From: an uncultured Gammaproteobacteria bacterium
GTDB taxonomy: Bacteria > Pseudomonadota > Gammaproteobacteria > GCF-002020875
Assembly (NCBI GenBank): GCA_963981015.1
Contig: CAXCCG010000002.1
Location: 8,291-72,290, forward strand
Direction: 5' to 3'
Length of the DNA stretch: 64,000 bases
In this document: positions 11,112-60,359 of the stretch, one piece after another
Layout of the letters: each line of letters opens with the position of its first letter
How positions within the stretch are numbered: position 1 is the stretch's first letter
Made by a program: the position numbers and the translations under genes
The notes under the pieces: generated by a model
The model's database searches: none
What the model was told of the DNA's origin: nothing
What the model saw: only the letters and a program-made list of their open reading frames with translations

Positions 11112-11251
11112 CCTGATCTTTAACTCCTAGTATTGAGTGCTCTTCTTAGATTGTGGGCAATGGTACTCTGCAGATCCTGTTCGCGCCTCAAACATCGCAC
11201 AAGAAACTGAAAATAGAGGGGTGCATAGTGGATCTTTGGAGTGCCAGAACG

Positions 11252-14200
11252 TCAAGGGTATTCTGGCTCAAATACAGGGGCACTCACTTTTCTAATCTCT
11301 TCGAGTTGTGGATCGTCCCACTGGCCTGTCAGAGTATATCGTGTCAAGGCAATCTCATCCTCACTAAACAGTTTCTGGTAGAGCAACACCACCGATCCCA
11401 CTACAGCACCTGCCGGCCCTGCCAACAGCGCCCCTGTTGCAGGTAGCGTTTCAGAGATTTTCGGGCTCACCGCAACAATCTGATCATAATCCTGTGCAAC
11501 AATCCCGGTTCGACCCTCCACTTTAATCTTGGCTGCCGGACCGTCCAGTACAAGATTACGTGTATGAGCGTTTCCATCCAACAGGCTAAAGGTGCCGTAA
11601 ATGGTATCAAACGGAAACCCCTGATCGGTCAGGTCTGAAAAATCGAGCGTTAGGCGGCGCACCAACGTATGGATTCCCAACAAGCCGAAAACTCTACCAA
11701 TCCCCTGATCAACATCCTTCAACTGCCCTTTCTCGACAGAGAGCTCCAGCTCCCCCTCCATTGTGCTCAAGGAGAACTCGGTCGGACGGTCAGGCCACTC
11801 TGCCTTCACATGTATCGAGCTCTTGCCCCGATCAATATCTCCCCCATAACCGAACAGTGAGAGGATTGACCCCAACTGATCCCCGTACAGGTTGATATTG
11901 AATTTGGAGATCGGTTTTCCCTCTCTCTGTAACCAACTCCCCTGTGCAGAGACATTCATCACATCCGACTTGAGCACCACATCATCAAAAAACAGGCCAC
12001 TCTTCGTAGAGTGTGCCTGCAGTGCCAGGGTACCAAAATCGATACCATTAATGACCGTTTTCTGACTCGACAGATCCATTGCAGGCATTTTTGACGGATC
12101 AAACTCAACACGCTGACTCTGCACCACTACAGCACTATCTTCCTCCATTCCGGAAACCTCTTCCCCCAGCTGCAGGTGACTCAGGTCAACCACCCACTTC
12201 TCTGCCGAATCATGCGGCACCAAGATACTTCCTTCAATCTGTTCACTACTGAGTTCCACATGGATCGATTGCTGCTCTCTACGCTCCACCTTCAACACAA
12301 GCTGATCCAGTTTTTGCCCAAACAGGCTCGCTCTATCTGCTGTCAATAATAGATGCCCGAAGCGAACACTATTCAACCCATGATTGACCGCCCCCTCCTG
12401 CCGCATCAATACCGACAGATCATACCAGGCCCCCAAATCAATCTCCTCCAGCGCCCCAATCAATTCCAGGCCATCACGCAGCTCACCCGCCGGCAAGGTC
12501 TGCTCTCGATCTCCGAAAAAAAGACGCCCTTTCCACGGTGCTGCTGCCTTGCCTTTGTAGAGGGTGGCATGTAGATGTTCCGGCATCGAGACCTGCATAC
12601 TTTCAACCTCTCCGGAACGTACTTTCATCGACAGCGTCGCAGGCCATCGAGCCTCAGCACTTTTATTAAAGGGTTCTGGTGTATTTAATTGAACGCCCTG
12701 CAACTCAGAATAGAGATGAATATCGATATCTTCCCTCTGAATTTTGAGGCGCCCACTCCACTCTGTTTTACTTTCTGATTGAAACAGCGGGGCCTTCATC
12801 TCTGCCAGACCGAACCAATGCTCTAAAGCAGCCCCCTGAAGCGCCCCCTCCAAACCAATCACCACCTCCGGTTGCTGTTCAGTTTCTGAGGTAAATGCGG
12901 TAATCAGGACAGGCCCACCCAACATGACCCCTTGAACACCCTCTATCATCACTCCATCATGGTTAAACTCAACATTCCCTTTCAGCTGATCAATCTGAAG
13001 ATCCAGTGCAGCAACATTCAGTTGATTATCATGCAACTCAACTCGTCCATCGACCTGCAGCGGACTCTCATCAACAGGGATCACAACATCCAACTCCAGC
13101 AGAGCATAGCCGGACATGGTCACCACAGAGTTCAGCTGTCTTGCCTGGGCGCTTAGGGGGGTATTTTCGAGTGTGCGAAGCAGTTTGGGACTCTCACTGA
13201 CCAACTGTCCATGCACCTCAAACGGCCCATCTACAATCTTGTCACTATGGATAGAGATATTGTGGATCGGATGGCCATCCAGCTTTCCCTCCTTCAATTT
13301 TGCGCGCATCGCTCCATTGTTAAAGTGAATTTCTGCCTGACTATGGGTCACCGTTGGCCACTCATCGGCATACTTCAGATAGAGATCCTGTACTTGTAAA
13401 TCTGCCTGAAACAGCCCTTCACCCTGCTCAAACGGGAACTGATTCAGCGCTCCTTTGAGCTTAATTTTTCCATCAATCAATTTACCGGAGAGTAGTGATT
13501 CATTTAGCCAGCCAACTAATTCCGGCCTCAACTGGCGTTCAGGTAATTGCTGAATGAGATCGGCAATACGCTGTACCTGAATATGGGCATTAACATCCAG
13601 AAAGGGGGACTGCCCCCCCCCTGGTAGCAGCAACTGCCCTCCTCCCTGCAAGCGCAGCGCACCAATCTCACCTTCAATACCACGAAAGGAGAGCAACAGT
13701 GCTCTTGAGCGTCTTCTCCAACTGACCAACCCTTGCTCTAGCGTCAACTGTTGAGGATCTGGATAATAGTGCTGAAGCGAGGCAAATATGGGCTGATTAG
13801 CCGGCATAAAGAACCCCTCCTGTTCATTGAGATGGAGTTTTCCATTGACCCCCGCCACACCCAGCCCCGCCGCCTGCTTCACCCCTTGCACAGAGATATT
13901 ACTCAACACCATTTTGGATTCAATCTGATTAAAGAGACTCTCTTTATTCGGGTAGGAGCGAAACTTCACATCATGCAAATCACCGGAAACCAGCGCCCCA
14001 CTCTCGCCGTGCATGACCGTAGCATAGAGTCCTGAGAGCGCGGGGGAAGGGACCAGACGGATACGGTCAACTGCCCCCAATATCAGCTCCTGACCCGTTT
14101 TGTCCTGCAGATATTTGACCAATGCCGAGGTTGGATGGCTCTGCTTATCCGACTCTCCACCCCATGCCAGTTTCTCCATTTGCAAGCGCCACGCAACCTC

Positions 14201-24393: not shown

Positions 24394-24894
24394 ATGTCCA
24401 ATGAAAAAGAGTCCACACTGATCCGCCTCTATCACACTCTTCGTGATCAGCTACAGGAGATCGCAGAGGAGGGGAGAGAGCAACTACCTTCACTTCAGGA
24501 ACTGATTGCAGAGACTCGAGAGAAGAGTGCCGAACTGAGTGAGCTGACCCGGGAAGAGGTGGATGAGGTGAGTCGCTACCTACACCGAGATCTGGAGGCT
24601 ACAGGGAACTATCTGGCAGAGACTGGTGAGGATCTGGGGCGCTGGTTTCACATGGAGGAGGCGCTGGTTGAAGATCGTCTGAAAGAACTATTTACTCAAC
24701 TGGCTGACCCAACACGAATCGCACTGGAACGGCTTGATGCGGACGCGCGTGCCTCACAGAATTATCTTAGCGGTGAGGTGATTGGTATGGGACAACTCAA
24801 ATGTAGTGCGTGTGAACACACCCTGCAGTTTAATCAGACCTCTATCATCCCCAGATGTCCTGAGTGTAACGGGACTCTTTTTAAGCTCTCCTGA
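24394..24894 (+). CDS. DUF1451-family zinc-ribbon protein
   Basis: 166 aa, an acidic helical protein with a C-terminal C-x2-C ... C-x2-C (KCSACEH...PRCPECNG). Preceded by an AGGAG SD. Confidence 0.55.
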   Translation: MSNEKESTLIRLYHTLRDQLQEIAEEGREQLPSLQELIAETREKSAELSELTREEVDEVSRYLHRDLEATGNYLAETGEDLGRWFHMEEALVEDRLKELFTQLADPTRIALERLDADARASQNYLSGEVIGMGQLKCSACEHTLQFNQTSIIPRCPECNGTLFKLS

Positions 24895-24914: not shown

Positions 24915-24945
24915 AAGCAGAAGTCGTAGTGAGGACAAGCTCCTA
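24915..24945. repeat. Short fragment of the palindromic repeat family that abuts the TAG stop of the histidine kinase gene
   Basis: gaagtcgtag...ggacaagctcCTA shares the core of the 18776-18828 copy. Confidence 0.4.
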
Positions 24946-25557
24946 TGGAATCCACAGCAGTAGCTGTGCGCCACCCAACTGCTCACTGGGCTGTAATTGA
25001 ATCGAGCCGGTTTGACCTCTTCTGCGATGTGCCTTGGCAATCTCCTCCCCGAGTCGAAGCCCGACTCCAACCCCTTTCATCTCACTGAGATCAACCTGCT
25101 TACTACCCAGCCCTTTTCCATTATCGTCGATAGAGAAGCAGATGCACCGGTCCTGCTCTTCGGCTCCAAGTACAATTCGGCTCGCCCCGGCATGAATCGC
25201 ATTGAGTATCCCGTGCGCCAACACACTGACGATGAGTGGTCTGTCATAAAACCCCATTGCTGCTGCAGAACAGTCTATTTCAAGCTCGATTCCCGATGCC
25301 TTTAACAGCACCTCTTCTCGACCTGCTGCCTCTTGCAGTGCATCAGACAACGGAAGGTCATAGCGATCAACCCGCAGCTCCTGCTGCTCCAGCCGAAAAA
25401 GGGTGAGCAGTGCAATCAGGTCATCATGGATCTGCCGGCTACTCTGCTGCATCTCCAGCTTCTTTTCATCTTGACTAGAGTCTATTTGCTGCATCAAGAC
25501 CCCTAACCGATTTTTCAGGTCATGCAGGTGATTCGCAACCAGTTCAGACCACTGCAT
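24943..25557 (-). CDS. Soluble (no TM, no sensor domain) histidine kinase
   Basis: 204 aa. H-box HDLKNRLGVL, then N/G1/G2 boxes of the HATPase_c type (DDNGKGLG, GVGVGLRL). Confidence 0.65.
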   Translation of the reverse strand: MQWSELVANHLHDLKNRLGVLMQQIDSSQDEKKLEMQQSSRQIHDDLIALLTLFRLEQQELRVDRYDLPLSDALQEAAGREEVLLKASGIELEIDCSAAAMGFYDRPLIVSVLAHGILNAIHAGASRIVLGAEEQDRCICFSIDDNGKGLGSKQVDLSEMKGVGVGLRLGEEIAKAHRRRGQTGSIQLQPSEQLGGAQLLLWIP

Positions 25558-25559
25558 AA

Positions 25560-27269
25560 TCAGCTTTTTGGCAATTTATGTACAAACTGCTCAAACAGGT
25601 CTTGTAGTTTTTCGTATCTCCGGTCCTGATTCTCTGGAGGAATCCTGCTCAGACAATCATCAACCATGCCAATTCGTTCCTCTGTTACCCCCTGCTTCAC
25701 AATCAACCCCATAATCGCCTGTGCTGCATTGAGGTTGACCACACGATTCCCTGGCAAGCGATCTGCTGCCTTATAGAGAATTTCAACCGCCTCCCCTAAA
25801 TTTCCATTTTTGTAGTAACCGACCCCTTCGCTATTCAGTTTCAACACCTCTTTACGCGCAGAGTTGATCTCATCCCGCTCCTCTCCCTCGATTCCAATCT
25901 GTTCAGCCAGATCAAAAATCTCCTCATGCACTTGGGTGTCATCATGGTTGGTCTGGATCACTTGACTCAGGATCTCCTTGACCATATTTTTATTACTTTC
26001 ACGCCGTTTTTCACTCTTCTGCTTGGCCACCTTGGCGCTCAACCCCTCCAACCCTTCTGAGCGAAAATCCAACCCCTGGCTATTTTCAGTAATTTGAGTG
26101 GCTAACTTCAGTGCTGTTTGGGTATCAATGGAACCCGTTCGCTTTTTGAAACTTTCACTGGCCCGCTGCAATGACTTATCTGCCTCACGGGTATTTCCCA
26201 TATGACCATAGGTTTGATTCTCCTGCAATGCCGTCTCAATTTGAGCACCTGGGTCACCGGCAAAATTTTGTCGAGCTTTCCCCAGATTTTTCAGTGCCTT
26301 ATTGGGTTCACCACACTCCAACAATACCGCAGAATATCCAGTGTAGTCGGAGACTTCACGAAACAGTGAGTAGGTTCCCAGGCGCACCGTCTTCTCATAC
26401 GCACTGGTTGCCACCTCCAGATCGTTATTGGATTCCGCAACGGTTGCCAACAGTTTTTGTCTACGCAGCACTTTAGGGGACTGCCCGACCGCATCTTCAA
26501 GAATTTTCTGTGCCTGAGCCCCTTCACCCATCTTCACCAGTGCTTTGGCCATCCAGTCACGTGCCACATTGTAGGCATCATTCGCCTCCAGTACCTGCTT
26601 AAAATAACTCACCGACTCTTCATACTGCCCCTGTTGAAAGAGCACCCTCCCTCGCCCCAGCAAAGCCCAGAGCAGTTCACGATCCTTCAGGACATCATCA
26701 TAGATTCCTAGCGCATGGTCAAAGTTTCTGGTTTTTTCCAGAATTTCCGCCTTGATTCGCAGCAACTCCATGGGGGTTTCGGTACGTTTTGCAATTAATT
26801 GATTCAGGCAACTGAGTGCACGCTTGGTACTCTTCATCTCCAAAGCACGATCCACCTGAACCAGCCCCTCTTTCTCTGCCGCGAGGCGAAACAGTCGATC
26901 TGCCAAAACGGTACGGGAAAAAGGCTTGGTCAGATAATCATCCGGTCGATTCTCAACTACACTTAACACCATGGTACGTGCCGTTTCAGCGGTGATCATG
27001 ATAAAAATCGTGGAGTACCCCAGGATTTGTCGTGTACGACTCTCTTCCAGAACCTGCTGCCCATCTTTACCCTCTCCAAGATGAAAATCACAGAGCACCA
27101 CATCATAACGCTTACTTTCCAATAACGTTAGCGCATCTTTACCATTGGATGCGGTATCAATCTGATGACCGGGCACCCCCCCTTCGCTGATCATCGCAAC
27201 CAGAGAGGTGCGATAGTTACCAAAGTCGTCGACAACCAGAAAGTGAAAATCTTTTAGAGAATAGTCCAT
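25560..27269 (-). CDS. Response regulator with an N-terminal REC domain fused to a roughly 430-aa TPR-repeat region
   Basis: REC signature residues (VVDDF, phospho-acceptor D in VVLCDFHLGEG, T in MITAE, K in LTKPF). The remainder is helical repeats. There is a 2-bp gap to the kinase gene. Confidence 0.7.
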   Translation of the reverse strand: MDYSLKDFHFLVVDDFGNYRTSLVAMISEGGVPGHQIDTASNGKDALTLLESKRYDVVLCDFHLGEGKDGQQVLEESRTRQILGYSTIFIMITAETARTMVLSVVENRPDDYLTKPFSRTVLADRLFRLAAEKEGLVQVDRALEMKSTKRALSCLNQLIAKRTETPMELLRIKAEILEKTRNFDHALGIYDDVLKDRELLWALLGRGRVLFQQGQYEESVSYFKQVLEANDAYNVARDWMAKALVKMGEGAQAQKILEDAVGQSPKVLRRQKLLATVAESNNDLEVATSAYEKTVRLGTYSLFREVSDYTGYSAVLLECGEPNKALKNLGKARQNFAGDPGAQIETALQENQTYGHMGNTREADKSLQRASESFKKRTGSIDTQTALKLATQITENSQGLDFRSEGLEGLSAKVAKQKSEKRRESNKNMVKEILSQVIQTNHDDTQVHEEIFDLAEQIGIEGEERDEINSARKEVLKLNSEGVGYYKNGNLGEAVEILYKAADRLPGNRVVNLNAAQAIMGLIVKQGVTEERIGMVDDCLSRIPPENQDRRYEKLQDLFEQFVHKLPKS

Positions 27270-27380
27270 TTCATACCCGTTACTTATGATCCCATCTCTC
27301 TATATTATCCCCCGGAGCCACACCTTATGTTAATTTAGAGGCTTGTCTAAGGTACCCCTGAACAAGTCATCTACGATATC

Positions 27381-28607
27381 TTATAAATTTTTAACAAACC
27401 AGCGTTTCATTCGTTCCCAGATACCGATTGATCCTCCATCCAGTAAGCCGCCATATTGCTGCCTGTTCTTCGCTGCATGAATCAGCAGCCCGACACCGGT
27501 TGCATGAACTGGAGTACGTACAATATCAATCATCCCCTCAATATTCTGTGGTGCCCCGAGACGGACCGGCTTATGGAAAATCTCCTCTGCCAGCTCAACC
27601 GCACCCTCCATCTTCGAGCTGCCACCGGTCAATACAATACCTGCATTGATCATATCCTCAAAGCCACTTCGGCGCAGTTCAGCCTGCACCAGGGTAAACA
27701 GCTCTTCATAACGGGGACCAACCACTTCTGCCAGCCCTTGTCGTGCCAATCTGCGTTCAGGGCGGTCCCCAATACTGGGAACAGCAACTTCTTCATTCGG
27801 GTCAACCAGTTCAGAAATCGCACAGGCATACTTCACCTTGATCTGTTCCGCATGGTGTGTCGGTGTACGCAGAAAGACTGCGATATCATTGGTTACCTGA
27901 TCACCCGCTACCGGAATCACCGCGGTATGGCGAATAGAACCTTCGGTAAAGACTGCAATATCGGTAGTCCCACCACCAATATCAATCATACAGACCCCCA
28001 GCTCTTTCTCATCTTCGCTCAGCACTGCATAGCTTGAGGCGAGTTGCTCCAGTACAACATCTTCTGCCTCCAGACCGCAAAGACGGATACATTTGACAAT
28101 ATTTTGCGCTGCACTGATTGAACCTGTGACAATATGGACCTTGGCCTCCAGACGGACCCCGGACATCCCCATCGGCTCATGGATCCCCTCCTGGTTATCA
28201 ATAATAAACTCCTGGGGGAGAGAGTGGATGATCTTCTGGTCTGCCGGTATAGCAATTGCTTTTGCCGCATCAATCACTCGATCTACATCGATGGCGGTCA
28301 CTTCCCGGGTACGGATCGCAATGATGCCGTGTGAATTCATGCCATGAATATGGCTGCCAGCGATACCCGCAGAGACCGATCCGATCTCACACTCCGCCAT
28401 TATCTCAGCCTCTTCTACTGCACGCTGAATCGACTTTACTGTCGATTCAATATTGACCACAACCCCCTTCTTCAGCCCTTTTGAAGGATGTGTTCCAATA
28501 CCCAGTATTTCCAGCTCGCCAGAGGGCTGCATAGCCCCAACAATGGCTGCAATTTTCGTAGTCCCGATATCAAGACCAACAATCAATTCATGCTCTTTTT
28601 TTCGCAT
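27381..28607 (-). CDS. ftsA: Cell division protein FtsA
   Basis: 408 aa, collinear with E. coli FtsA (LVVGLDIGT.K.AA.VG, GVCMIDIGGGTTDIAV, GIVLTGG). Confidence 0.93.
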   Translation of the reverse strand: MRKKEHELIVGLDIGTTKIAAIVGAMQPSGELEILGIGTHPSKGLKKGVVVNIESTVKSIQRAVEEAEIMAECEIGSVSAGIAGSHIHGMNSHGIIAIRTREVTAIDVDRVIDAAKAIAIPADQKIIHSLPQEFIIDNQEGIHEPMGMSGVRLEAKVHIVTGSISAAQNIVKCIRLCGLEAEDVVLEQLASSYAVLSEDEKELGVCMIDIGGGTTDIAVFTEGSIRHTAVIPVAGDQVTNDIAVFLRTPTHHAEQIKVKYACAISELVDPNEEVAVPSIGDRPERRLARQGLAEVVGPRYEELFTLVQAELRRSGFEDMINAGIVLTGGSSKMEGAVELAEEIFHKPVRLGAPQNIEGMIDIVRTPVHATGVGLLIHAAKNRQQYGGLLDGGSIGIWERMKRWFVKNL

Positions 28608-42546: not shown

Positions 42547-43520
42547 GGCTGGAACCGTTTATCGATATTGCTGGTAGTTCGCTCAGCCACTCTTAATACT
42601 GCGCTTCTTGAGCGCGGATTCAGATCGATCTCCTCTGCCGTGGCGCGCTGTCGCTTGCCGACTGTTTGCAACACCCCCTGTTGCGGTTGTCCGCGAATAG
42701 GAATTTCGGGTGGCAGCTCCTGTTGCCCACCACTATTGCGACGAAAAAACTGTTTGACCATACGATCTTCAAGAGAATGAAAACTGATCACCACGACTCT
42801 TCCTCCCGCGGATAACAGAGAAAGGCTCTGCTCCAGAGCCTGTTTCAGCTCTTGTAACTCCTGATTGATATGTATTCTGATTGCCTGAAAGGTTCGGGTG
42901 GCCGGATGCTTTTTATGGTAACCGGGGATTACCCGTTGCACCAATTCTGCGAGCTGTGAAGTAGTAACCAAAGGGATCTCATCACGTGAGTGGATAATTG
43001 CACGCGCTATCTTTCTGGATTGACGCTCATCACCGTACTCCCATAAAACACGGGCAATCTCATCCTGCTCCGCACAGCGCAGCCACTCCGCCGCGGTTAA
43101 TGGCTGAGACTGGTCCATTCTCATATCAAGTGGCCCTTGGCGCATGAAACTGAAGCCACGATCCGCATGGTCCAACTGAGGGGAAGAGACCCCCAAATCC
43201 AGGAGATAACCATCCAGCTTTCGAGTCAGCCCCATTTCTGTCAGCACCTCAGGCAACTTTGAAAAGGGGTTATGGGTGATCACCACACGTGGATCTGCTG
43301 CATATAGCCGTTGAGCCTCAGTGATTGCATCCTGATCACGGTCCATCAAGAGTAATTTGCCTTGTGGCGAGAGCTGTTTAATGATTTCTGCCGTATGCCC
43401 CCCCCGCCCAAAGGTGCCATCAACATAAAAACCATCTTCTTTTATTTTAAGACCCGTTACCGCTTCACCAAGCATCACCGAGAAGTGAGCCGATAACGGG
43501 TCCGAATCAGAAGTAGACAT
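42543..43520 (-). CDS. rsmH: 16S rRNA (cytosine1402-N4)-methyltransferase RsmH (MraW)
   Basis: 325 aa with HIPVMLGE-like N-terminus, GRGGHT and DLG.SS motifs. Confidence 0.92.
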   Translation of the reverse strand: MSTSDSDPLSAHFSVMLGEAVTGLKIKEDGFYVDGTFGRGGHTAEIIKQLSPQGKLLLMDRDQDAITEAQRLYAADPRVVITHNPFSKLPEVLTEMGLTRKLDGYLLDLGVSSPQLDHADRGFSFMRQGPLDMRMDQSQPLTAAEWLRCAEQDEIARVLWEYGDERQSRKIARAIIHSRDEIPLVTTSQLAELVQRVIPGYHKKHPATRTFQAIRIHINQELQELKQALEQSLSLLSAGGRVVVISFHSLEDRMVKQFFRRNSGGQQELPPEIPIRGQPQQGVLQTVGKRQRATAEEIDLNPRSRSAVLRVAERTTSNIDKRFQP

Positions 43521-43944
43521 CCTGCAACTGCGTCAGGTCATCTTCACTCAGCTCTTCAGGTTGTGAAACATCAACCCAAGCTGCATCATCCCATAGCTCC
43601 AACTTAAACCCCACACCGGCTAGTACGGCCACTTTATCCAGTTTTGCATGATCACGAAGCTCCTGGCTCAACAAAATTCTTCCATTGCTATCCATTTCAC
43701 ACTCTTGTGAGCGTCCGATCACGACACGGCGCAGTTTGGATTGTTGACTACCCGGCAATAAACCAATTTTTGTCTCCACATCTTCCCACTCCGGCAAGGG
43801 ATAGAGATCCAGGCAGGGGGAACGAAAATTGGGGGCAACCACAACCTTTCCATCAGAGGCACCCAACAACTGAGAGCGATAGTGGGTCGGAATTGAAACC
43901 CGTCCCTTACCATCCATTTTGACTGATTTGTTTCCTCGAAACAT
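43507..43944 (-). CDS. mraZ: Transcriptional regulator MraZ
   Basis: 145 aa, N-terminus MFRGNKSVKMDGKGRVSIPT. Confidence 0.9.
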   Translation of the reverse strand: MFRGNKSVKMDGKGRVSIPTHYRSQLLGASDGKVVVAPNFRSPCLDLYPLPEWEDVETKIGLLPGSQQSKLRRVVIGRSQECEMDSNGRILLSQELRDHAKLDKVAVLAGVGFKLELWDDAAWVDVSQPEELSEDDLTQLQDVYF

Positions 43945-43965: not shown

Positions 43966-45204
43966 TTAGTTAGCCTGACTTCGTAAAAAGGCGGGGATAT
44001 CGAGAAACTCCTCATCCAGCCCAGAGGCTGATGCACTGTTTACACCCGCCGCCCCATGCATTTGAGTCTCTTGTCTCTGAAAGGTAGGACGGTCCAGATC
44101 ACCACTCACTCTAGGTTGCTGAGGCATGTAGTCATCTGTACGTGGCATCTCCACTTCGACCAAAACAGGTTTTGGTCGTGGGTTTGCTTGCTCTGCAGCA
44201 ATGCTGTTCAACCCCGTTGCCACAACCGTAACACGGATCTCATCATTCATTGAAGCATCAAAACCTGCTCCAATCACAATGGTTGCGTCTTCAGAAGCGT
44301 ACTGACGTACCGCTGTTCCCACCTCATTAAACTGCCCCATGGTCAAGTCATAGCCGGAGGTGACATTGACCAGAATGCCGCGTGCACCGCGCAGGTCAAT
44401 ATCCTCCAGTAGCGGGCTGTGGAGCGCGATATCAGCAGCAATTGACGCACGATTCTCACCTGTGGCTGAGCCGGTACCCATCATTGCCATTCCCATCTCA
44501 GACATTACCGTTTTTACATCAGCAAAATCCACATTGATCATTCCCTCTCGGGTAATCAACTCAGCGATTCCCTGCACAGCACCTCGCAATACACCATCTG
44601 CCTCGCGGAACGCATCCATCACGGTCATGTCTGCACCAAAAACCGTCATTAATTTTTCATTTGGAATGGTAATAATAGAATCGACATGTTGACTCAACTC
44701 ATCAATTCCATCCAAAGCAACACTCATACGCTTTGGGCCTTCCATGGAAAATGGCTTGGTCACGACCGCTACTGTCAAGATCCCCATCTCTTTAGCAACT
44801 TCCGCAACGACCGGGGCCGCCCCGGTTCCTGTGCCACCACCCATTCCGGCTGTAATAAAGAGCATCTCTGTGCCTTCTATCGCCTCACGAATACGTTCCC
44901 GATCCTCTAGTGCAGAGTCTCGTCCAACGGTCGGCTTTGCACCGGCTCCACGACCACGTGTAGTCTGAACACCAATCTGTATTGCCGTGCTGGCAGAGGA
45001 TTTACCCAATGCCTGTGCATCGGTATTTGCACAGATGAAATCAACTCCCTCAATTTCAGAAGCAACCATATGTTCCAAGGCGTTACCACCTGCTCCCCCC
45101 ACTCCGATAACACGAATAATTGCGTTATCAGCATATGAATCGACTATTTCTTCAAACATATCTCTCCCTCGGCTTACTGGATTATTATAACCACTAGTCT
45201 CCAA
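43966..45204 (-). CDS. ftsZ: Cell division GTPase FtsZ, in a non-canonical position immediately upstream of mraZ
   Basis: 412 aa with GGGTGTG (GMGGGTGTGAAPVVAEVAKEMGILTVAVVTKPF), NTDAQAL and NVDFADV motifs, collinear with E. coli FtsZ. Its stop codon lies 21 nt upstream of the mraZ start. Confidence 0.96.
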   Translation of the reverse strand: METSGYNNPVSRGRDMFEEIVDSYADNAIIRVIGVGGAGGNALEHMVASEIEGVDFICANTDAQALGKSSASTAIQIGVQTTRGRGAGAKPTVGRDSALEDRERIREAIEGTEMLFITAGMGGGTGTGAAPVVAEVAKEMGILTVAVVTKPFSMEGPKRMSVALDGIDELSQHVDSIITIPNEKLMTVFGADMTVMDAFREADGVLRGAVQGIAELITREGMINVDFADVKTVMSEMGMAMMGTGSATGENRASIAADIALHSPLLEDIDLRGARGILVNVTSGYDLTMGQFNEVGTAVRQYASEDATIVIGAGFDASMNDEIRVTVVATGLNSIAAEQANPRPKPVLVEVEMPRTDDYMPQQPRVSGDLDRPTFQRQETQMHGAAGVNSASASGLDEEFLDIPAFLRSQAN

Positions 45205-45509
45205 AAAAACCCACTATACGCCACTTTTTCCCAATATCAACAAAATTTGAATTTTTTCCCCACACGACTCAAAACCTTCCGAAACCCCCAATTCACCTAT
45301 AACATTTTATAAATAATTTAAATATCATTGAGTTATAAGGTTTTATAGGGGTAATGACTGAACAATAATTTTCTCTGAATGATCGCCATAACCGGCCTAA
45401 CAGGACGGAGTATAGAAACATCAACTTAGCATTCAAAAATCGGGGGGGATGATGCTCAACAGCACCCTAAAATAGTATCCGGGAGCGGCCCGAACCTCAT
45501 TGACTGCTA

Positions 45510-45557: not shown

Positions 45558-45610
45558 AAACAAGGTTGTCGGAGTACAAATACTCAAACATATTGTATGG
45601 AGAATTAAAA

Positions 45611-45962
45611 GAGGAAGCTGGTCGATAAGCCGGGTTCTGTCATGGACAACCATTCATCTGGGATGCGTGTCACCACACACCTCAAGCGACCTACCCGAGG
45701 ACAGAGCGAGCCACTCCATTGTCCCCCTATTTGGTCTTGCTCCGAGCGGGGTTTACCATGCCACAAGCAGTTACCTGCTGCGCGGTGTGCTCTTACCACA
45801 CCATTTCAACCTTACCGGCACGACAAGTCGTACGTAGGCGGTATATTTTCTGCTGCACTTTCCATAGGCTTTCACCTTCCAGGCGTTACCTGGCGCTCTG
45901 CTCTGCGGAGCCCGGACTTTCCTCTGTATTGCGAACAACACAGCGATTGCCTGACCAGCTTC
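45611..45962 (-). ncRNA. rnpB: RNase P RNA (bacterial type A)
   Basis: The reverse complement contains the 5' GAAGCUGGUCAGG...GAGGAAAGUCCGGGCUCC...GCCAGGUAACGCCUGG and the 3' AGAUGAAUGGUUGUCCAUGACAGAACCCGGCUUAUCGACCAGCUUCCUC, matching E. coli M1 RNA P4 and 3'-end regions. Confidence 0.85.
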
Positions 45963-56214: not shown

Positions 56215-58302
56215 ATGTCTGATCCGCTTCTTCCTCCTCTTTTGCAGCTCTGCAAATTACACGGCTTCCCTCTAGCTGCGGAATCCTTGCTGGCAGGCAT
56301 TCCTCTGAAGCGTGGCTTACTGAATCCAGCACTGACCGTTCGAGCGCTACAGCGATCCGGTATCAACGGCAATATTGACAATCTTCCGCTAAAGAAGCTA
56401 TCAACCACACAGCTGCCGGCACTACTCTTTCTAAAGGAGAAGAAGGCTGTAGTGCTCAGCAAAATTGATGGAAAAACTGCCTATATCCTCGATAATGCGG
56501 GTCAAGAGGAGTCCATTGAACTCAAAAAACTCAAGCAACAGTACAATGGTCAAACACTGATCATTAATGGTGCACTGCCTCCAGCTGAAGGGGGGCAGGG
56601 AAAGCTCTGGTTCTGGAAAACCATCCTCAAGGGGTGGCCCATCTACAGCGAAAGTATATTTGCCTCTTTTATGGTCAATCTGTTTACCCTGGCCAGCCCT
56701 CTTTTCGTGATGAACGTCTATGACCGAGTGGTTCCCAACAATGCAATGGAGACCTTATGGGTGTTGGCAATTGGCGCGCTACTGGTTGCAGGATTTGATT
56801 TTCTGCTGCGTACGCTACGTGCCTACTTTATTGATGTGGCTGGAAAACGTGCTGATTTAGCTCTATCAGCCACCATCTTCGAACAACTCTTGGGTACCCG
56901 AATGGAGGCACGTGACCCGGCCTCCGGTGCCATCGCAAACCATATGCGTGAATTTGAGGGGCTTCGTGATTTCTTCACCTCTGCCTCACTCACAACTCTG
57001 ATTGACTTGCCATTTCTTGTCATCTTTCTTGCTGTCATCTGGATGATTGGCGGCCCCATTGTCTTTATTCCAATGACAGCCATTCCTATTGTGCTCATCT
57101 CTGCCCTGCTGCTGCAGATCCCGCTCCATCGCGCAGTGAGTGAAACCTTTAAAGAGGCTACACAAAAACACGCCATTCTGGTCGAGGCGATCTCTGCCGC
57201 CGAAACGATCAAAAGTGAAAATGCCGAGGGGGTCATGCAGCAGAAATGGGAAGGCTATGTCGAGAAGCTTGCCAAGTCGGGGATGAAAAGCAAGCTCTGG
57301 TCGACCCTAGCAATCAATCTGACAACCTTCACCCACCAAGCTGCAACCATCGCCATTGTGGTATTTGGTGTTCACCAGATTTCAGCAGGTGAGATGAGTA
57401 TTGGTGCCTTGATTGCCTGTACCATTCTCGCCGGTCGTGCACTGGCCCCTTTGGCAGGAATCGCCGCGCTACTGATTCGTTATCGACAATCCATGGTTGC
57501 TCTACGCGCACTTCATGGGGTAATGCAAAAACCGATCGAGCGCCCGGTCACGACCCATTTTCTACACCGTCCTCCACTACAAGGGGCTATCGAGCTACGG
57601 AAAGTCAGCTTTCAATATCCTAATCAGGAAGATCATGCTCTGCATGATCTCAATGCCACCATCCAACCGGGTGAACGGGTTGCCATTATTGGTCGTATTG
57701 GGTCGGGGAAAAGTACATTACAAAAATTGCTGCTCGGCCTCTACCAGCCACAGTCAGGCAGCCTGCTGATCGACCATACCCACTTAAATCAACTGGATCC
57801 TGCACAACTACGGCGCTCAATCGGTTATGTTTCACAAGAGATTGTCCTGTTCCGGGGCACACTTCGAGATAACATCAAACTTGGCAACCCACAGGCGAGT
57901 GATGAGGAGTTATTGGATGCCTCTCAACTGGCCGGTGTAGATACCTTTGTTCGGCAACACCCCAAAGGCTATGATCTGGAGGTTGGGGAACGGGGAGAGG
58001 GGCTCTCTGGCGGTCAACGGCAAGCGGTCGCGATGGCGCGTGCACTACTCCAAAAACCACCGATCATCCTGCTCGATGAACCCACCAGCTCGATGGATAA
58101 CAGTGCTGAACAGCAGTGGAAGGAGCGTTTCACCCCATTTCTGAAGGGGAGAACCCTGATATTGGTCACCCACCGCAGCTCTCTGCTCTCTCTGGCGGAC
58201 CGACTCATTATTCTGGATCAGGGTAAAATTGTCGGAGATGGCCCGAGAGACCGGGTTCTAGAGGCGTTAAACCAGGGTAAAGTCCTGCAAAACACAACAT
58301 AA
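56215..58302 (+). CDS. Type I secretion system permease/ATPase (ABC exporter with an N-terminal C39-like domain)
   Basis: 695 aa. A roughly 130-aa N-terminal C39-like domain, a 6-TM ABC transmembrane domain, and a C-terminal NBD (GRIGSGKST, LSGGQRQ, ILLDEPTS). Confidence 0.85.
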   Translation: MSDPLLPPLLQLCKLHGFPLAAESLLAGIPLKRGLLNPALTVRALQRSGINGNIDNLPLKKLSTTQLPALLFLKEKKAVVLSKIDGKTAYILDNAGQEESIELKKLKQQYNGQTLIINGALPPAEGGQGKLWFWKTILKGWPIYSESIFASFMVNLFTLASPLFVMNVYDRVVPNNAMETLWVLAIGALLVAGFDFLLRTLRAYFIDVAGKRADLALSATIFEQLLGTRMEARDPASGAIANHMREFEGLRDFFTSASLTTLIDLPFLVIFLAVIWMIGGPIVFIPMTAIPIVLISALLLQIPLHRAVSETFKEATQKHAILVEAISAAETIKSENAEGVMQQKWEGYVEKLAKSGMKSKLWSTLAINLTTFTHQAATIAIVVFGVHQISAGEMSIGALIACTILAGRALAPLAGIAALLIRYRQSMVALRALHGVMQKPIERPVTTHFLHRPPLQGAIELRKVSFQYPNQEDHALHDLNATIQPGERVAIIGRIGSGKSTLQKLLLGLYQPQSGSLLIDHTHLNQLDPAQLRRSIGYVSQEIVLFRGTLRDNIKLGNPQASDEELLDASQLAGVDTFVRQHPKGYDLEVGERGEGLSGGQRQAVAMARALLQKPPIILLDEPTSSMDNSAEQQWKERFTPFLKGRTLILVTHRSSLLSLADRLIILDQGKIVGDGPRDRVLEALNQGKVLQNTT

Positions 58303-58334: not shown

Positions 58335-60359
58335 CTAATTACTACGGATAATCCAGTTTCCCGTCTTACTGGAGTTGAGGTTCAGCTTATCCAGTTTGCG
58401 GTTAAAGCGCCTGAGCTGTTTTCCCAGCTCACCCTTTCTCTGACTTAACAGCTGACTCCGGTTCTTCAACTTCTGGTTATAACTGGAACCGTTATGGCTG
58501 GAGCGGTTCATTCTGCTCGCCAATAACAACCTGCGCTGCTCATGACGATTCAATTGCCCGCCACGCTCTTTCGGTTTCTGCCTTGGGGCCATCTGCGTAT
58601 TACCTTGTGACAATACCAGAGTAGGTTTAACCGGGGGCGGAGCGAGCATTGCCACTTCTGTCTGCACCACTCGACTGTCTACCACAACCGGTTTCCGGCC
58701 TCTTGCCTCATCCACTGCATTCAACACTACCCAGCCTGCATCTTTCATCTGGTCATAAGCCACATTCCAACTTGATGTTTTCTGAGTCATTGCCAAGTCT
58801 GGTGATGTAGTGGAAACTGAAGCCTCTGAGGCTGTAGCCACCGTCTCTGTCACCACAGTGCCGAACTCCGGTCCAGCCCCCCCACCATCAGTGACTATAG
58901 CGGTTTCAACAGAACTGCCGATCCCCATAATCGTGTCTGCAACCTTACCCGGTGCAGCCAGTACCCGGTCAATAAAGACCAGATCTCCAGCATCCTCTTC
59001 CGTCTCAAAACTATTCAGTATCTCTTCGGGAATATCCAAATAATTGAGCAGTACGCCAAGATGAGCAATCACCCGATAGACTCCAAGCCTTACACTGGTG
59101 TCATCTTGCAATACTGCCAACTTGGCCTGCAGTAGCGCATCATCTGCCGCCATAATCGTCATTACATCGGCTTCACCCAGCTTGAACTGCTCTTGAACCG
59201 ATTGTGCGTTTTCATGTGCGATTTGATACTGCTTTTTGCTCGTCATCAATAACTCTCGAGTAACTTCCAACCCATTCCAGTAGAGTTTTAACTGCTCTTC
59301 CATGCTGTGGCGTGCAATATTCAACTGCTCCTGACTATCAACCACGCTCTTCGCCATCTCTCTTCTGCGAGATTGATCTGCCCCCCCCCGAAACAGGTTA
59401 TATTTCATTTTCAGCAGAGCCGTATAATAGTCCTCTTGCCCCTCATTACCTCCATTATTGAGGTCACGCCCCCCTTTGAGTTCAAAATCAAGAGTTGGTA
59501 ACAAACCGGCACGGGTACCCTCAAAATCCGCCTTGATTGCATTCAGGTTCGCTCTCGCACTCTTCAAAATCGGATTATTTACCAATAACACTTCTATCGC
59601 TTGTGTATATTCAGCGGGCACCCCCCAGTCGGGGACGTCCATTGCCTTGTTCAATACTTCAGATGGCGCCAAGCCAACCACCTTGGTGTATCGTGCCAAC
59701 GCATCTCTATACTCACCTCTGGCAGAAATGAGTGCTGATTGTGCAGCCAGCAACGGAGTTTCTGCTGCAACCAGCTCTGATTTTCCAGCCCCCCCAGCCT
59801 CTACTTTCTCCTGAATCTGCATAAACAGCTTGTTATGCTGATTGACGTTCTCTACAGTCCATCGGATCACCCGTTGAAGGCGATAAATTTCATACCAGGA
59901 CTCAATCGTCTGCAATGCCACAGAGATGCGGATTTCATCCAGCTGAACGGTAGAAACCTCTAACATTTGGCCGCTACGATCTACCGCAGCTGCTGCCGCT
60001 CCTCCATCAAAAAGTGGCTGTGTTAAGGTGACTGTTGTACTTTTTTTCATCATCTTTGTAGAATCAGAGGTCGGTTTATCTCTGTATTCACGGCCTGAAT
60101 CCAGACTCACATCTAGCGTTGGAAGCCATCCTGCGACCGCTTGCCCCAGCTGTTCATCTGCAATACCCACACCATGGTAGGCTGACTTAATTTCCGGATT
60201 ATTTTGCAACGCCAAATGAATCGCTTGTGACAATGAGTGAGCATAGCTTGCCATCGGAGTTGAAAGTACCGCAACCAGAGCGGTCACTACAACCCTCTTT
60301 GCTACGTGCCGACGAGCACCTATTAATTTTACATTTCTATCATTCATCTTACTCACCAC
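58335..60359 (-). CDS. TolC-family outer-membrane efflux protein (T1SS OMF type) with a roughly 235-aa non-TolC C-terminal extension ending in a basic tail
   Basis: 674 aa. Signal peptide, a TolC-like two-repeat region to about residue 440, then a Thr/Ser/Val-rich segment and a Lys/Arg-rich C-terminus. Confidence 0.75.
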   Translation of the reverse strand: MVSKMNDRNVKLIGARRHVAKRVVVTALVAVLSTPMASYAHSLSQAIHLALQNNPEIKSAYHGVGIADEQLGQAVAGWLPTLDVSLDSGREYRDKPTSDSTKMMKKSTTVTLTQPLFDGGAAAAAVDRSGQMLEVSTVQLDEIRISVALQTIESWYEIYRLQRVIRWTVENVNQHNKLFMQIQEKVEAGGAGKSELVAAETPLLAAQSALISARGEYRDALARYTKVVGLAPSEVLNKAMDVPDWGVPAEYTQAIEVLLVNNPILKSARANLNAIKADFEGTRAGLLPTLDFELKGGRDLNNGGNEGQEDYYTALLKMKYNLFRGGADQSRRREMAKSVVDSQEQLNIARHSMEEQLKLYWNGLEVTRELLMTSKKQYQIAHENAQSVQEQFKLGEADVMTIMAADDALLQAKLAVLQDDTSVRLGVYRVIAHLGVLLNYLDIPEEILNSFETEEDAGDLVFIDRVLAAPGKVADTIMGIGSSVETAIVTDGGGAGPEFGTVVTETVATASEASVSTTSPDLAMTQKTSSWNVAYDQMKDAGWVVLNAVDEARGRKPVVVDSRVVQTEVAMLAPPPVKPTLVLSQGNTQMAPRQKPKERGGQLNRHEQRRLLLASRMNRSSHNGSSYNQKLKNRSQLLSQRKGELGKQLRRFNRKLDKLNLNSSKTGNWIIRSN

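Follow-up and report, generated by a model that had tools for sequence, protein, structure and literature searches.

The window analyzed here, a stretch of 64,000 nucleotides from an uncultured gammaproteobacterium (contig CAXCCG010000002.1 of assembly GCA_963981015.1), harbors two signaling genes directly downstream of ftsA, in its cluster of genes for division and the cell wall (dcw). The first encodes a response regulator made of a receiver (REC) domain followed by tetratricopeptide repeats (TPRs), and the second a small histidine kinase reduced to its core. The pair is an uncharacterized two-component system, and its regulator belongs to the VieB-like kind that binds proteins. Sequence comparisons and predicted structures point, with a probability of about 0.7, to a cognate and self-contained cytoplasmic pair, in which a VieB-like REC-TPR response regulator and a dedicated core-only kinase of the HisKA type would form a phospho-switch, translocated by chance to the site after ftsA. 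A sequence-only reading of the window had seen in the pair an adaptor of divisome assembly, a link that the genomic comparisons do not support. The module is large, tightly co-inherited and uncharacterized; it would offer a compact model for the input of sensor-less kinases and for the action of VieB-type regulators.

The response regulator and its kinase

Both genes are located on the minus strand. The REC-TPR gene (25560-27269, 569 aa) is defined by its open reading frame (ORF), Pfam, an AlphaFold2 model and homologs, and the kinase gene (24943-25557, 204 aa) by its ORF, a family alignment and the HATPase_c domain. As each has hundreds of full-length homologs, both are real genes rather than chance ORFs. 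The stop codon of the REC-TPR gene and the ATG of the kinase gene are separated by 2 bases. The sequence-only reading had placed the pair at these positions 3' of ftsA and had considered its co-transcription probable from the 2-bp spacing: ORFs and coordinates are as it claimed, and the two genes form a tightly linked, probably co-transcribed unit. Comparisons within the family rely on 84 REC-TPR loci drawn from metagenomes and genomes; pair statistics refer to 64 pairs, comprising 63 full-length adjacent pairs and that of the window.

Pfam analysis of the REC-TPR protein identifies a Response_reg domain (residues 11-126, 1.3e-15) and many TPR families. Its AlphaFold2 model (predicted local distance difference test score 91.9, predicted template modeling score 0.85) exhibits a REC domain (residues 1-132, 26874-27269, minus strand) with D61 as phospho-acceptor, followed by an all-alpha, TPR-type superhelix of ~430 amino acids (residues 136-563, 25581-26864, minus strand) that counts 22 helices in the predicted secondary structure. 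The best solved relatives of the receiver are CheY proteins (E=1e-24), and its acidic pocket is complete and conserved (D14, D15, D61, T93, K115), as in members of the REC superfamily. The only structural matches of the model returned by Foldseek are TPR superhelices, namely the TPR domain of O-GlcNAc transferase (OGT) and designed consensus TPRs. No DNA-binding or enzymatic domain was found by Pfam or in the AlphaFold2 model. Pfam, the model and the conserved residues therefore agree with the description, first made from the sequence alone, of a complete phospho-acceptor receiver fused to ~430 residues of TPRs without DNA-binding or enzymatic output, and this domain content fits the predicted output by protein interaction rather than transcription.

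The TPR signature residues W201, G205, A260 and P265 are invariant among homologs. Asparagines of the C-terminal repeats are also retained: N479 and N514 are near-invariant, and position 508 is Asn in 55 of the 64 pairs. In OGT-type TPRs, conserved Asn residues line the peptide-binding groove. To note, the loop and helix that follow the phospho-acceptor Asp (residues 60-77) are unusually conserved. The family motif at this place, C-D-x-x-L-G-x-G-K-D-G-Q-Q-V-L-E-E, departs from the usual D-x-x-M-P-x-M-D-G, and its residues G65, G70, Q71, Q72, L74, E75 and E76 are invariant in 38 diverse homologs. This segment may be the surface recognized by the kinase. The REC-TPR protein of the window keeps every family-invariant residue, an argument that its function is that of the other family members.

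The kinase model assembles a dimerization and histidine phosphotransfer (DHp) hairpin (25387-25551, minus strand; residues 3-57, AlphaFold2 helices 3-27 and 32-57), harboring the phospho-acceptor H12, and an alpha/beta catalytic and ATP-binding (CA) domain (24946-25359, minus strand; residues 67-204). The DHp helix begins at residue 3, leaving no room for a sensor or a transmembrane segment. The H box reads H12-D-L-K-N-R-L; the N box (N119), the G1 box (D145-x-G147) and the G2 box (G164-x-G166) are likewise present, and conservation extends to homologs with as little as 27% identity, while the ATP lid is short and the F box not clear. The kinase thus shows two features of the HisKA type, a His carried by a DHp hairpin and a CA domain of Bergerat fold bearing the N, G1 and G2 boxes. 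In Foldseek, the model aligns with HK853, CpxA, DivL, CusS and AdeS over the whole of their cytoplasmic cores (E about 1e-10). The likeness to HisKA cores of the HK853, CpxA and EnvZ type extends to the acidic residue at +1 and the Asn at +4 of the H box, and to the N, G1 and G2 boxes. In contrast to these kinases, that of the window begins at the DHp helix and is devoid of input domains, whether transmembrane, HAMP, PAS or another.

Pfam scores are less generous: HATPase_c reaches 26.3 bits for a curated cut-off of 26.4 and is formally sub-threshold, and the HisKA domain is not detected. These two values would suit a decaying remnant or a pseudokinase pair devoid of phospho-signaling, an explanation with a minimal chance of being correct. 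Both models are confident, and the acceptor and catalytic residues are essentially invariant in the 64 pairs, down to ~27% identity: H12 (64/64), N119 and G147 of the kinase and K115 of the receiver are kept throughout, as is an acidic residue (Asp or Glu) at kinase position 13 (64/64); N16 is found in 63/64, D145 and G166 each in at least 62/64, and D61 wherever the alignment has a residue there (63 of 63 sequences). The pseudokinase reading was rejected on account of this conservation. The kinase assignment, founded on motifs and predicted fold, is secure despite the Pfam score, and the sequence-only description of a core-only kinase (H box plus HATPase_c, without sensor or transmembrane segment) holds for motifs, predicted fold and homolog conservation, with HATPase_c 0.1 bit short.

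The following mechanism can be proposed. The kinase would dimerize via its DHp hairpin and autophosphorylate on H12. Among HisKA kinases, the H-[DE]-x-x-N motif is associated with combined kinase and phosphatase activity; the H-D-x-x-N motif of the window protein suggests that it may exert both, thereby setting the level of D61 phosphorylation. Phosphorylation of the receiver would then alter what the ~430-residue TPR superhelix binds, so that the output would be a protein–protein interaction and not transcription or catalysis. Such a control of partner binding, rather than DNA binding, by receiver phosphorylation operates in CpdR, RssB and DivK. The regulator of the window would resemble them in concept, by a phosphorylation-gated protein binding, but it differs from them by its TPR domain, and homology is claimed for REC only. 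Since the kinase lacks a sensor domain, its input is expected to come from protein contacts, from other kinases or from its expression level, the likeliest contact being the TPR protein itself.

A two-gene module in variable surroundings

The module is found in Gammaproteobacteria, Nitrospirota and Desulfobacterota. More than 580 of the scored candidates are significant homologs of the REC-TPR protein; ~14 clusters share 55-80% identity with it, and hundreds of full-length proteins (~540 aa) are ~35% identical, in Chromatiales, Ca. Thiodiazotropha, Endothiovibrio, Nitrospirota and Smithellaceae. Cultivable carriers include Thiocystis violacea and relatives of Endothiovibrio. With a profile of the kinase as query, about 380 representative clusters were retrieved (E<=1e-10), of which the best-scoring 150 are nearly all 200-280 aa long and are matched end to end, which makes the core-only topology a family trait. 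The kinase protein is present on 175 contigs, which places its organism in the Saanich Inlet and OMZ datasets. No literature on a REC-TPR/mini-kinase module was found in searches on REC-TPR and CheY-TPR architectures.

Several pieces of evidence establish the obligate pairing of the two genes. They are same-strand neighbors in 63 of the 84 loci, with the regulator first in 53 and the kinase first in 10. Where at least 650 bp are available downstream of the regulator gene, the kinase gene follows it immediately in 56 of 73 loci, with gaps of -38 to +48 bp. The pairwise identities of REC-TPR proteins and kinases correlate with r=0.825, a value reached by 0 of 999 Mantel permutations, and with r=0.62 for distant pairs alone. 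Together, adjacency and correlated divergence are what characterizes a kinase and its cognate regulator passed on as one unit. No other conserved neighbor emerged when all neighboring ORFs of the 84 loci were clustered. The next commonest is a von Willebrand factor A (VWA)-domain protein of 600-770 aa, present at 8/84 loci (L070, L073, L094, L099, L102, L112, L120 and L127), and a 232-aa protein without Pfam match is encoded just upstream of the REC-TPR gene in four loci, for instance L102; these two neighbors may be an operon extension proper to a sub-family. At two further loci (L131, 9225-14323; L132, 6260-10866) the mini-kinase gene precedes two tandem REC-TPR paralogs with a 219-aa ORF between them, which suggests a local duplication of the regulator.

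The genomic context of the module is variable. A homolog of FtsA, FtsZ, FtsQ, Ddl, MraZ or RsmH lies within 10 kb at 0/84 loci, and one of LeuS or DUF1451 also at 0/84. Pairs are found instead beside curli and SCO1 genes, lipid and DnaJ genes, or TonB/ExbBD genes. In loci L003-L005 (7461-14640), which harbor a 60%-identical homolog, the pair is part of a cyclic di-GMP (c-di-GMP) island and sits between a VieS-like hybrid kinase with an SBP_bac_3 domain and a REC-GGDEF-EAL protein; the island also encodes a methyl-accepting chemotaxis protein, a GGDEF protein and a REC-HD-GYP protein. A phage-type integrase gene is located just upstream in L005.

This island recalls the VieSAB system of Vibrio cholerae. 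VieB possesses an N-terminal receiver with a conserved Asp, TPR repeats, and a C-terminal half without recognized domains; it binds and inhibits the kinase VieS, and the D62E substitution at the conserved Asp weakens this inhibition (PMC4352251). "VieB-like" REC-TPR proteins are an established architecture class of response regulators (PMC2222644). Compared by architecture, the window protein is similar to VieB: a REC domain and then TPRs, without DNA-binding or catalytic output. Two differences from VieSAB as described are apparent. A dedicated 204-aa core-only kinase is encoded in the same operon and conserved throughout the family of the window pair, whereas neither a hybrid kinase of the VieS type nor an EAL regulator of the VieA type is found near the window copy, a similar neighborhood being present only in L003-L005. 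A protein search of PLSDB yielded nothing but mislabeled chromosomes that carry orphan, unannotated REC-TPR genes. These genes, from Aeromonas, Photobacterium and Vibrio, reach ~28% identity in the N-terminal half, and neither a mini-kinase nor vieSA was found beside them.

By analogy with VieB, the TPRs could serve as an input or anti-kinase element: the REC-TPR protein would bind and tune a kinase, either its own mini-kinase or a hybrid one, with D61 phosphorylation switching the inhibition. The pair would then act as a feedback element or a phosphate sink within a different pathway. The VieB biochemistry (PMC4352251) makes such a role a serious variant of the phospho-switch model, and the need of a sensor-less mini-kinase for a protein partner as input, together with the place of the pair between the hybrid kinase and the REC-GGDEF-EAL protein in L003-L005, is in line with it. 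It is nevertheless rather unlikely, as the signaling island occurs in one lineage only and, at most loci, no further kinase lies near the pair, the window itself lacks a partner of the VieS/VieA type, and the likeness to VieB is one of architecture.

The slot after ftsA

On the minus strand, the window contains a nearly complete dcw cluster (mraZ, rsmH, ftsI, murE, murF, mraY, murD, ftsW, murG, murC, murB, ddl, ftsQ and ftsA), whose genes follow the standard order from mraZ to ftsA. The latter (27381-28607, minus strand; TIGR01174, 2.9e-150) is the last dcw gene ahead of the pair and is separated from the REC-TPR gene by 111 bp (27270-27380, minus strand). On the other side, the gene of a DUF1451 zinc-ribbon protein (24394-24894, plus strand; Pfam 2e-40) is convergent on the kinase gene, as the first inspection of the sequence had noted, and leuS, lptE, holA, proA and nadD lie beyond it. 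The same inspection had reported ftsZ as missing from the slot after ftsA. It is not directly after ftsA in the window, indeed, and was located at the head of the dcw cluster, at a distance of 17 kb. The canonical gammaproteobacterial order is ftsQ-ftsA-ftsZ-lpxC; in contrast, the window has ftsZ ahead of mraZ and a signaling pair after ftsA, and in its sub-lineage lpxC is not adjacent.

Where a gene lies within the dcw cluster usually says much about its function. Here, the comparative data indicate that the place of the pair is a by-product of rearrangement. Species-representative genomes were scanned with the FtsA of the window, and the window proteins were mapped onto the loci obtained. 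Twelve metagenome-assembled genomes (MAGs) encode an FtsA 81-97% identical to that of the window; NCBI labels them as uncultured Piscirickettsiaceae, Thiotrichales or Methylophaga. Among the 10 species-level MAGs with sequence downstream of ftsA (FtsA 84-93% identical), none has ftsZ there. Conversely, every locus with an FtsA of at most 73% identity and sufficient downstream room displays ftsA-ftsZ (about 39 loci, including Sedimenticola, Chromatiales, Aquisalimonas and Mailhella). Co-occurrence of the pair with the relocation of ftsZ had been suggested as a check; the two do not go together, as the 10 informative clade MAGs without ftsZ after ftsA are all also without the pair at this site. 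The module is found, moreover, in lineages of canonical order: Ca. Thiodiazotropha has homologs, and related Sedimenticola MAGs have ftsA-ftsZ.

Unrelated genes fill the slot in these relatives. It is occupied by lpxC-secA-argJ in L011, L012, L016 and L059, and by DUF1451 directly in L010, L014 and L019, followed by leuS where the locus extends. An unknown ORF of 197 aa precedes DUF1451-leuS in L013, a SIMPL gene is found in L009, and a convergent NtrC-type regulator and a PAS kinase in L015. The 3' junction of ftsA thus appears as a rearrangement hot-spot of the clade (L009-L019 and L059, about 11225-13000). Only one sister species (L001, L002 and L064) shares the pair after ftsA, with an FtsA 95%, a REC-TPR protein 80% and a kinase 67% identical to those of the window. 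In another clade member, CAYQFH01, the ftsA/DUF1451 junction of contig 31 (L019) is empty, and a REC-TPR/mini-kinase pair (59% and 57% identity) is located on contig 5 (L149), between mazG and HIT-dsbA-tatD-holB-tmk. The left flank of this copy, sulP-yajQ-ykuD-nagZ followed by a phosphoribosyltransferase gene, is common to L003.

The pair resembles its host in GC content and in GC content at third codon positions (GC3), and a search for flanking repeats found none; this fits a translocation within the genome. The chance insertion of a cassette, mobile or acquired horizontally, or of an anti-phage defense system would account for a module context that differs in almost every lineage. TPR-bearing two-component defense systems do exist, Detocs being one. 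PADLOC, however, yields only partial REC and TPR matches (E=9e-4 and 9e-3) and none for the kinase, no effector domain is present, and the window site has neither integrase nor transposase. This origin is accordingly given almost no weight, and was rejected on the host-like GC and GC3, the absence of repeats and the lack of a PADLOC system match.

The history of the site may be traced in three steps. ftsZ would first have left the slot after ftsA in the ancestor of the clade, moving to the head of the dcw cluster, and its departure would have left the 3' end of ftsA as a rearrangement-prone junction. A second break would then have joined ftsA to DUF1451-leuS in one sub-lineage. Finally, the pair would have entered the ftsA/DUF1451 junction in the ancestor of two species. 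To judge from these comparisons, the location of the pair after ftsA is most likely a lineage-specific accident of rearrangement.

Two observations weigh against this view. First, nothing blocks co-transcription with ftsA: the gaps are short (49 bp in the sister species), and the terminator between ftsA and the pair that would have separated them was not found, as a scan of the 111-bp gap reveals no terminator-like site and folding no stable hairpin (z=+1.1). Read-through from ftsA into the pair is therefore plausible on sequence grounds. Second, the arrangement persists in two species that have diverged to 80% identity in the REC-TPR protein and 67% in the kinase. Co-transcription alone, however, does not establish a shared function. 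The gap also contains a promoter-like match (TTAACA-18-GATAAT, 27333-27304) that is not conserved in the sister species. A private promoter opposed to read-through was rejected as a candidate, being within shuffled expectation (4 found, 3.6 expected) and absent from the sister species.

These observations could be accommodated by a lineage-specific co-option, in which the pair is read through from ftsA and its phospho-gated TPR scaffold binds a component of the divisome. The shared strand, the short gaps without terminator-like structure, the persistence in two diverged species and the conserved Asn residues of the C-terminal repeats are favorable to it. Co-option is nonetheless improbable: the dcw genes are absent around the 84 other loci, ten clade members have the relocated ftsZ but no pair at the site, one member has its pair on another contig, the window copy is unchanged at the family-invariant positions, and unrelated genes fill the slot in sister species. 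A specific form of it would be a long shot: once ftsZ had gone from the 3' end of the cluster, a generic switch could have joined the ftsA transcript, and its TPR groove, with the conserved Asn residues of the C-terminal repeats, might bind a divisome peptide such as the C-terminal tail of FtsZ or FtsA. If true, it would place Z-ring assembly under phospho-control and provide the first REC-TPR adaptor of the divisome. The proposal of a divisome-assembly adaptor is thus not supported by the distribution of the family. The dcw linkage is limited to the window and one sister species, at 80% identity, and all other homologs examined are found in surroundings without relation to division, which is essentially the distribution that had been named beforehand as refuting the proposal.

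The relocated ftsZ and a distal gene group

The ftsZ gene of the window (43966-45159, minus strand; Tubulin and FtsZ_C domains) is located between rnpB (45610-45962; RF00010, 328 bits) and mraZ (43507-43944, minus strand), whose start lies 21 bp beyond the end of ftsZ. The order rsmI-ftsZ-mraZ-rsmH-ftsL-ftsI is observed in two other members of the clade (L146 and L147, 5001-6700). The first of these MAGs has ftsZ ahead of mraZ, ftsA followed by lpxC, and no pair after ftsA. The canonical ftsA-ftsZ-lpxC is retained in Methylophaga frappieri, whose FtsZ is 62% identical and which is the closest outgroup with a name. From the gene orders compared, the relocation is clade-wide in marine MAGs related to Methylophaga. 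No published report of ftsZ upstream of mraZ was found in the paper library searched.

A promoter-like element (TTGATA-16-TATAGT) and an overlapping array are present at 45184-45240 (minus strand), upstream of the relocated ftsZ. The array, GTGG-n6-GTGG-n6-TTGG-n6-GTGG, has a 10-bp periodicity, and its core is invariant in three species. The MraZ operator is described as GTG(G/T) boxes with 6-nt spacers (PMC12957436), a pattern that the array fits by sequence comparison. It appears, from this resemblance, that the insertion of ftsZ separated mraZ from the Pmra promoter and its MraZ operator. The gene order of the cluster is among the best conserved in bacteria, and the position of ftsZ behind a promoter with MraZ-like boxes is an unusual departure from it that would put ftsZ under the direct control of MraZ.

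At a distance from the dcw cluster, the segment 61001-63437 (minus strand) encodes a repetitive protein of 350 aa rich in Thr, Asn and Gly, followed by two paralogous lipoprotein-like ORFs of ~230 aa. Adjoining it are the genes of a TolC-like protein, whose C-terminal tail is long and basic (58335-60359), and of an ABC exporter (56215-58302). The whole gene group may be a secretion locus.

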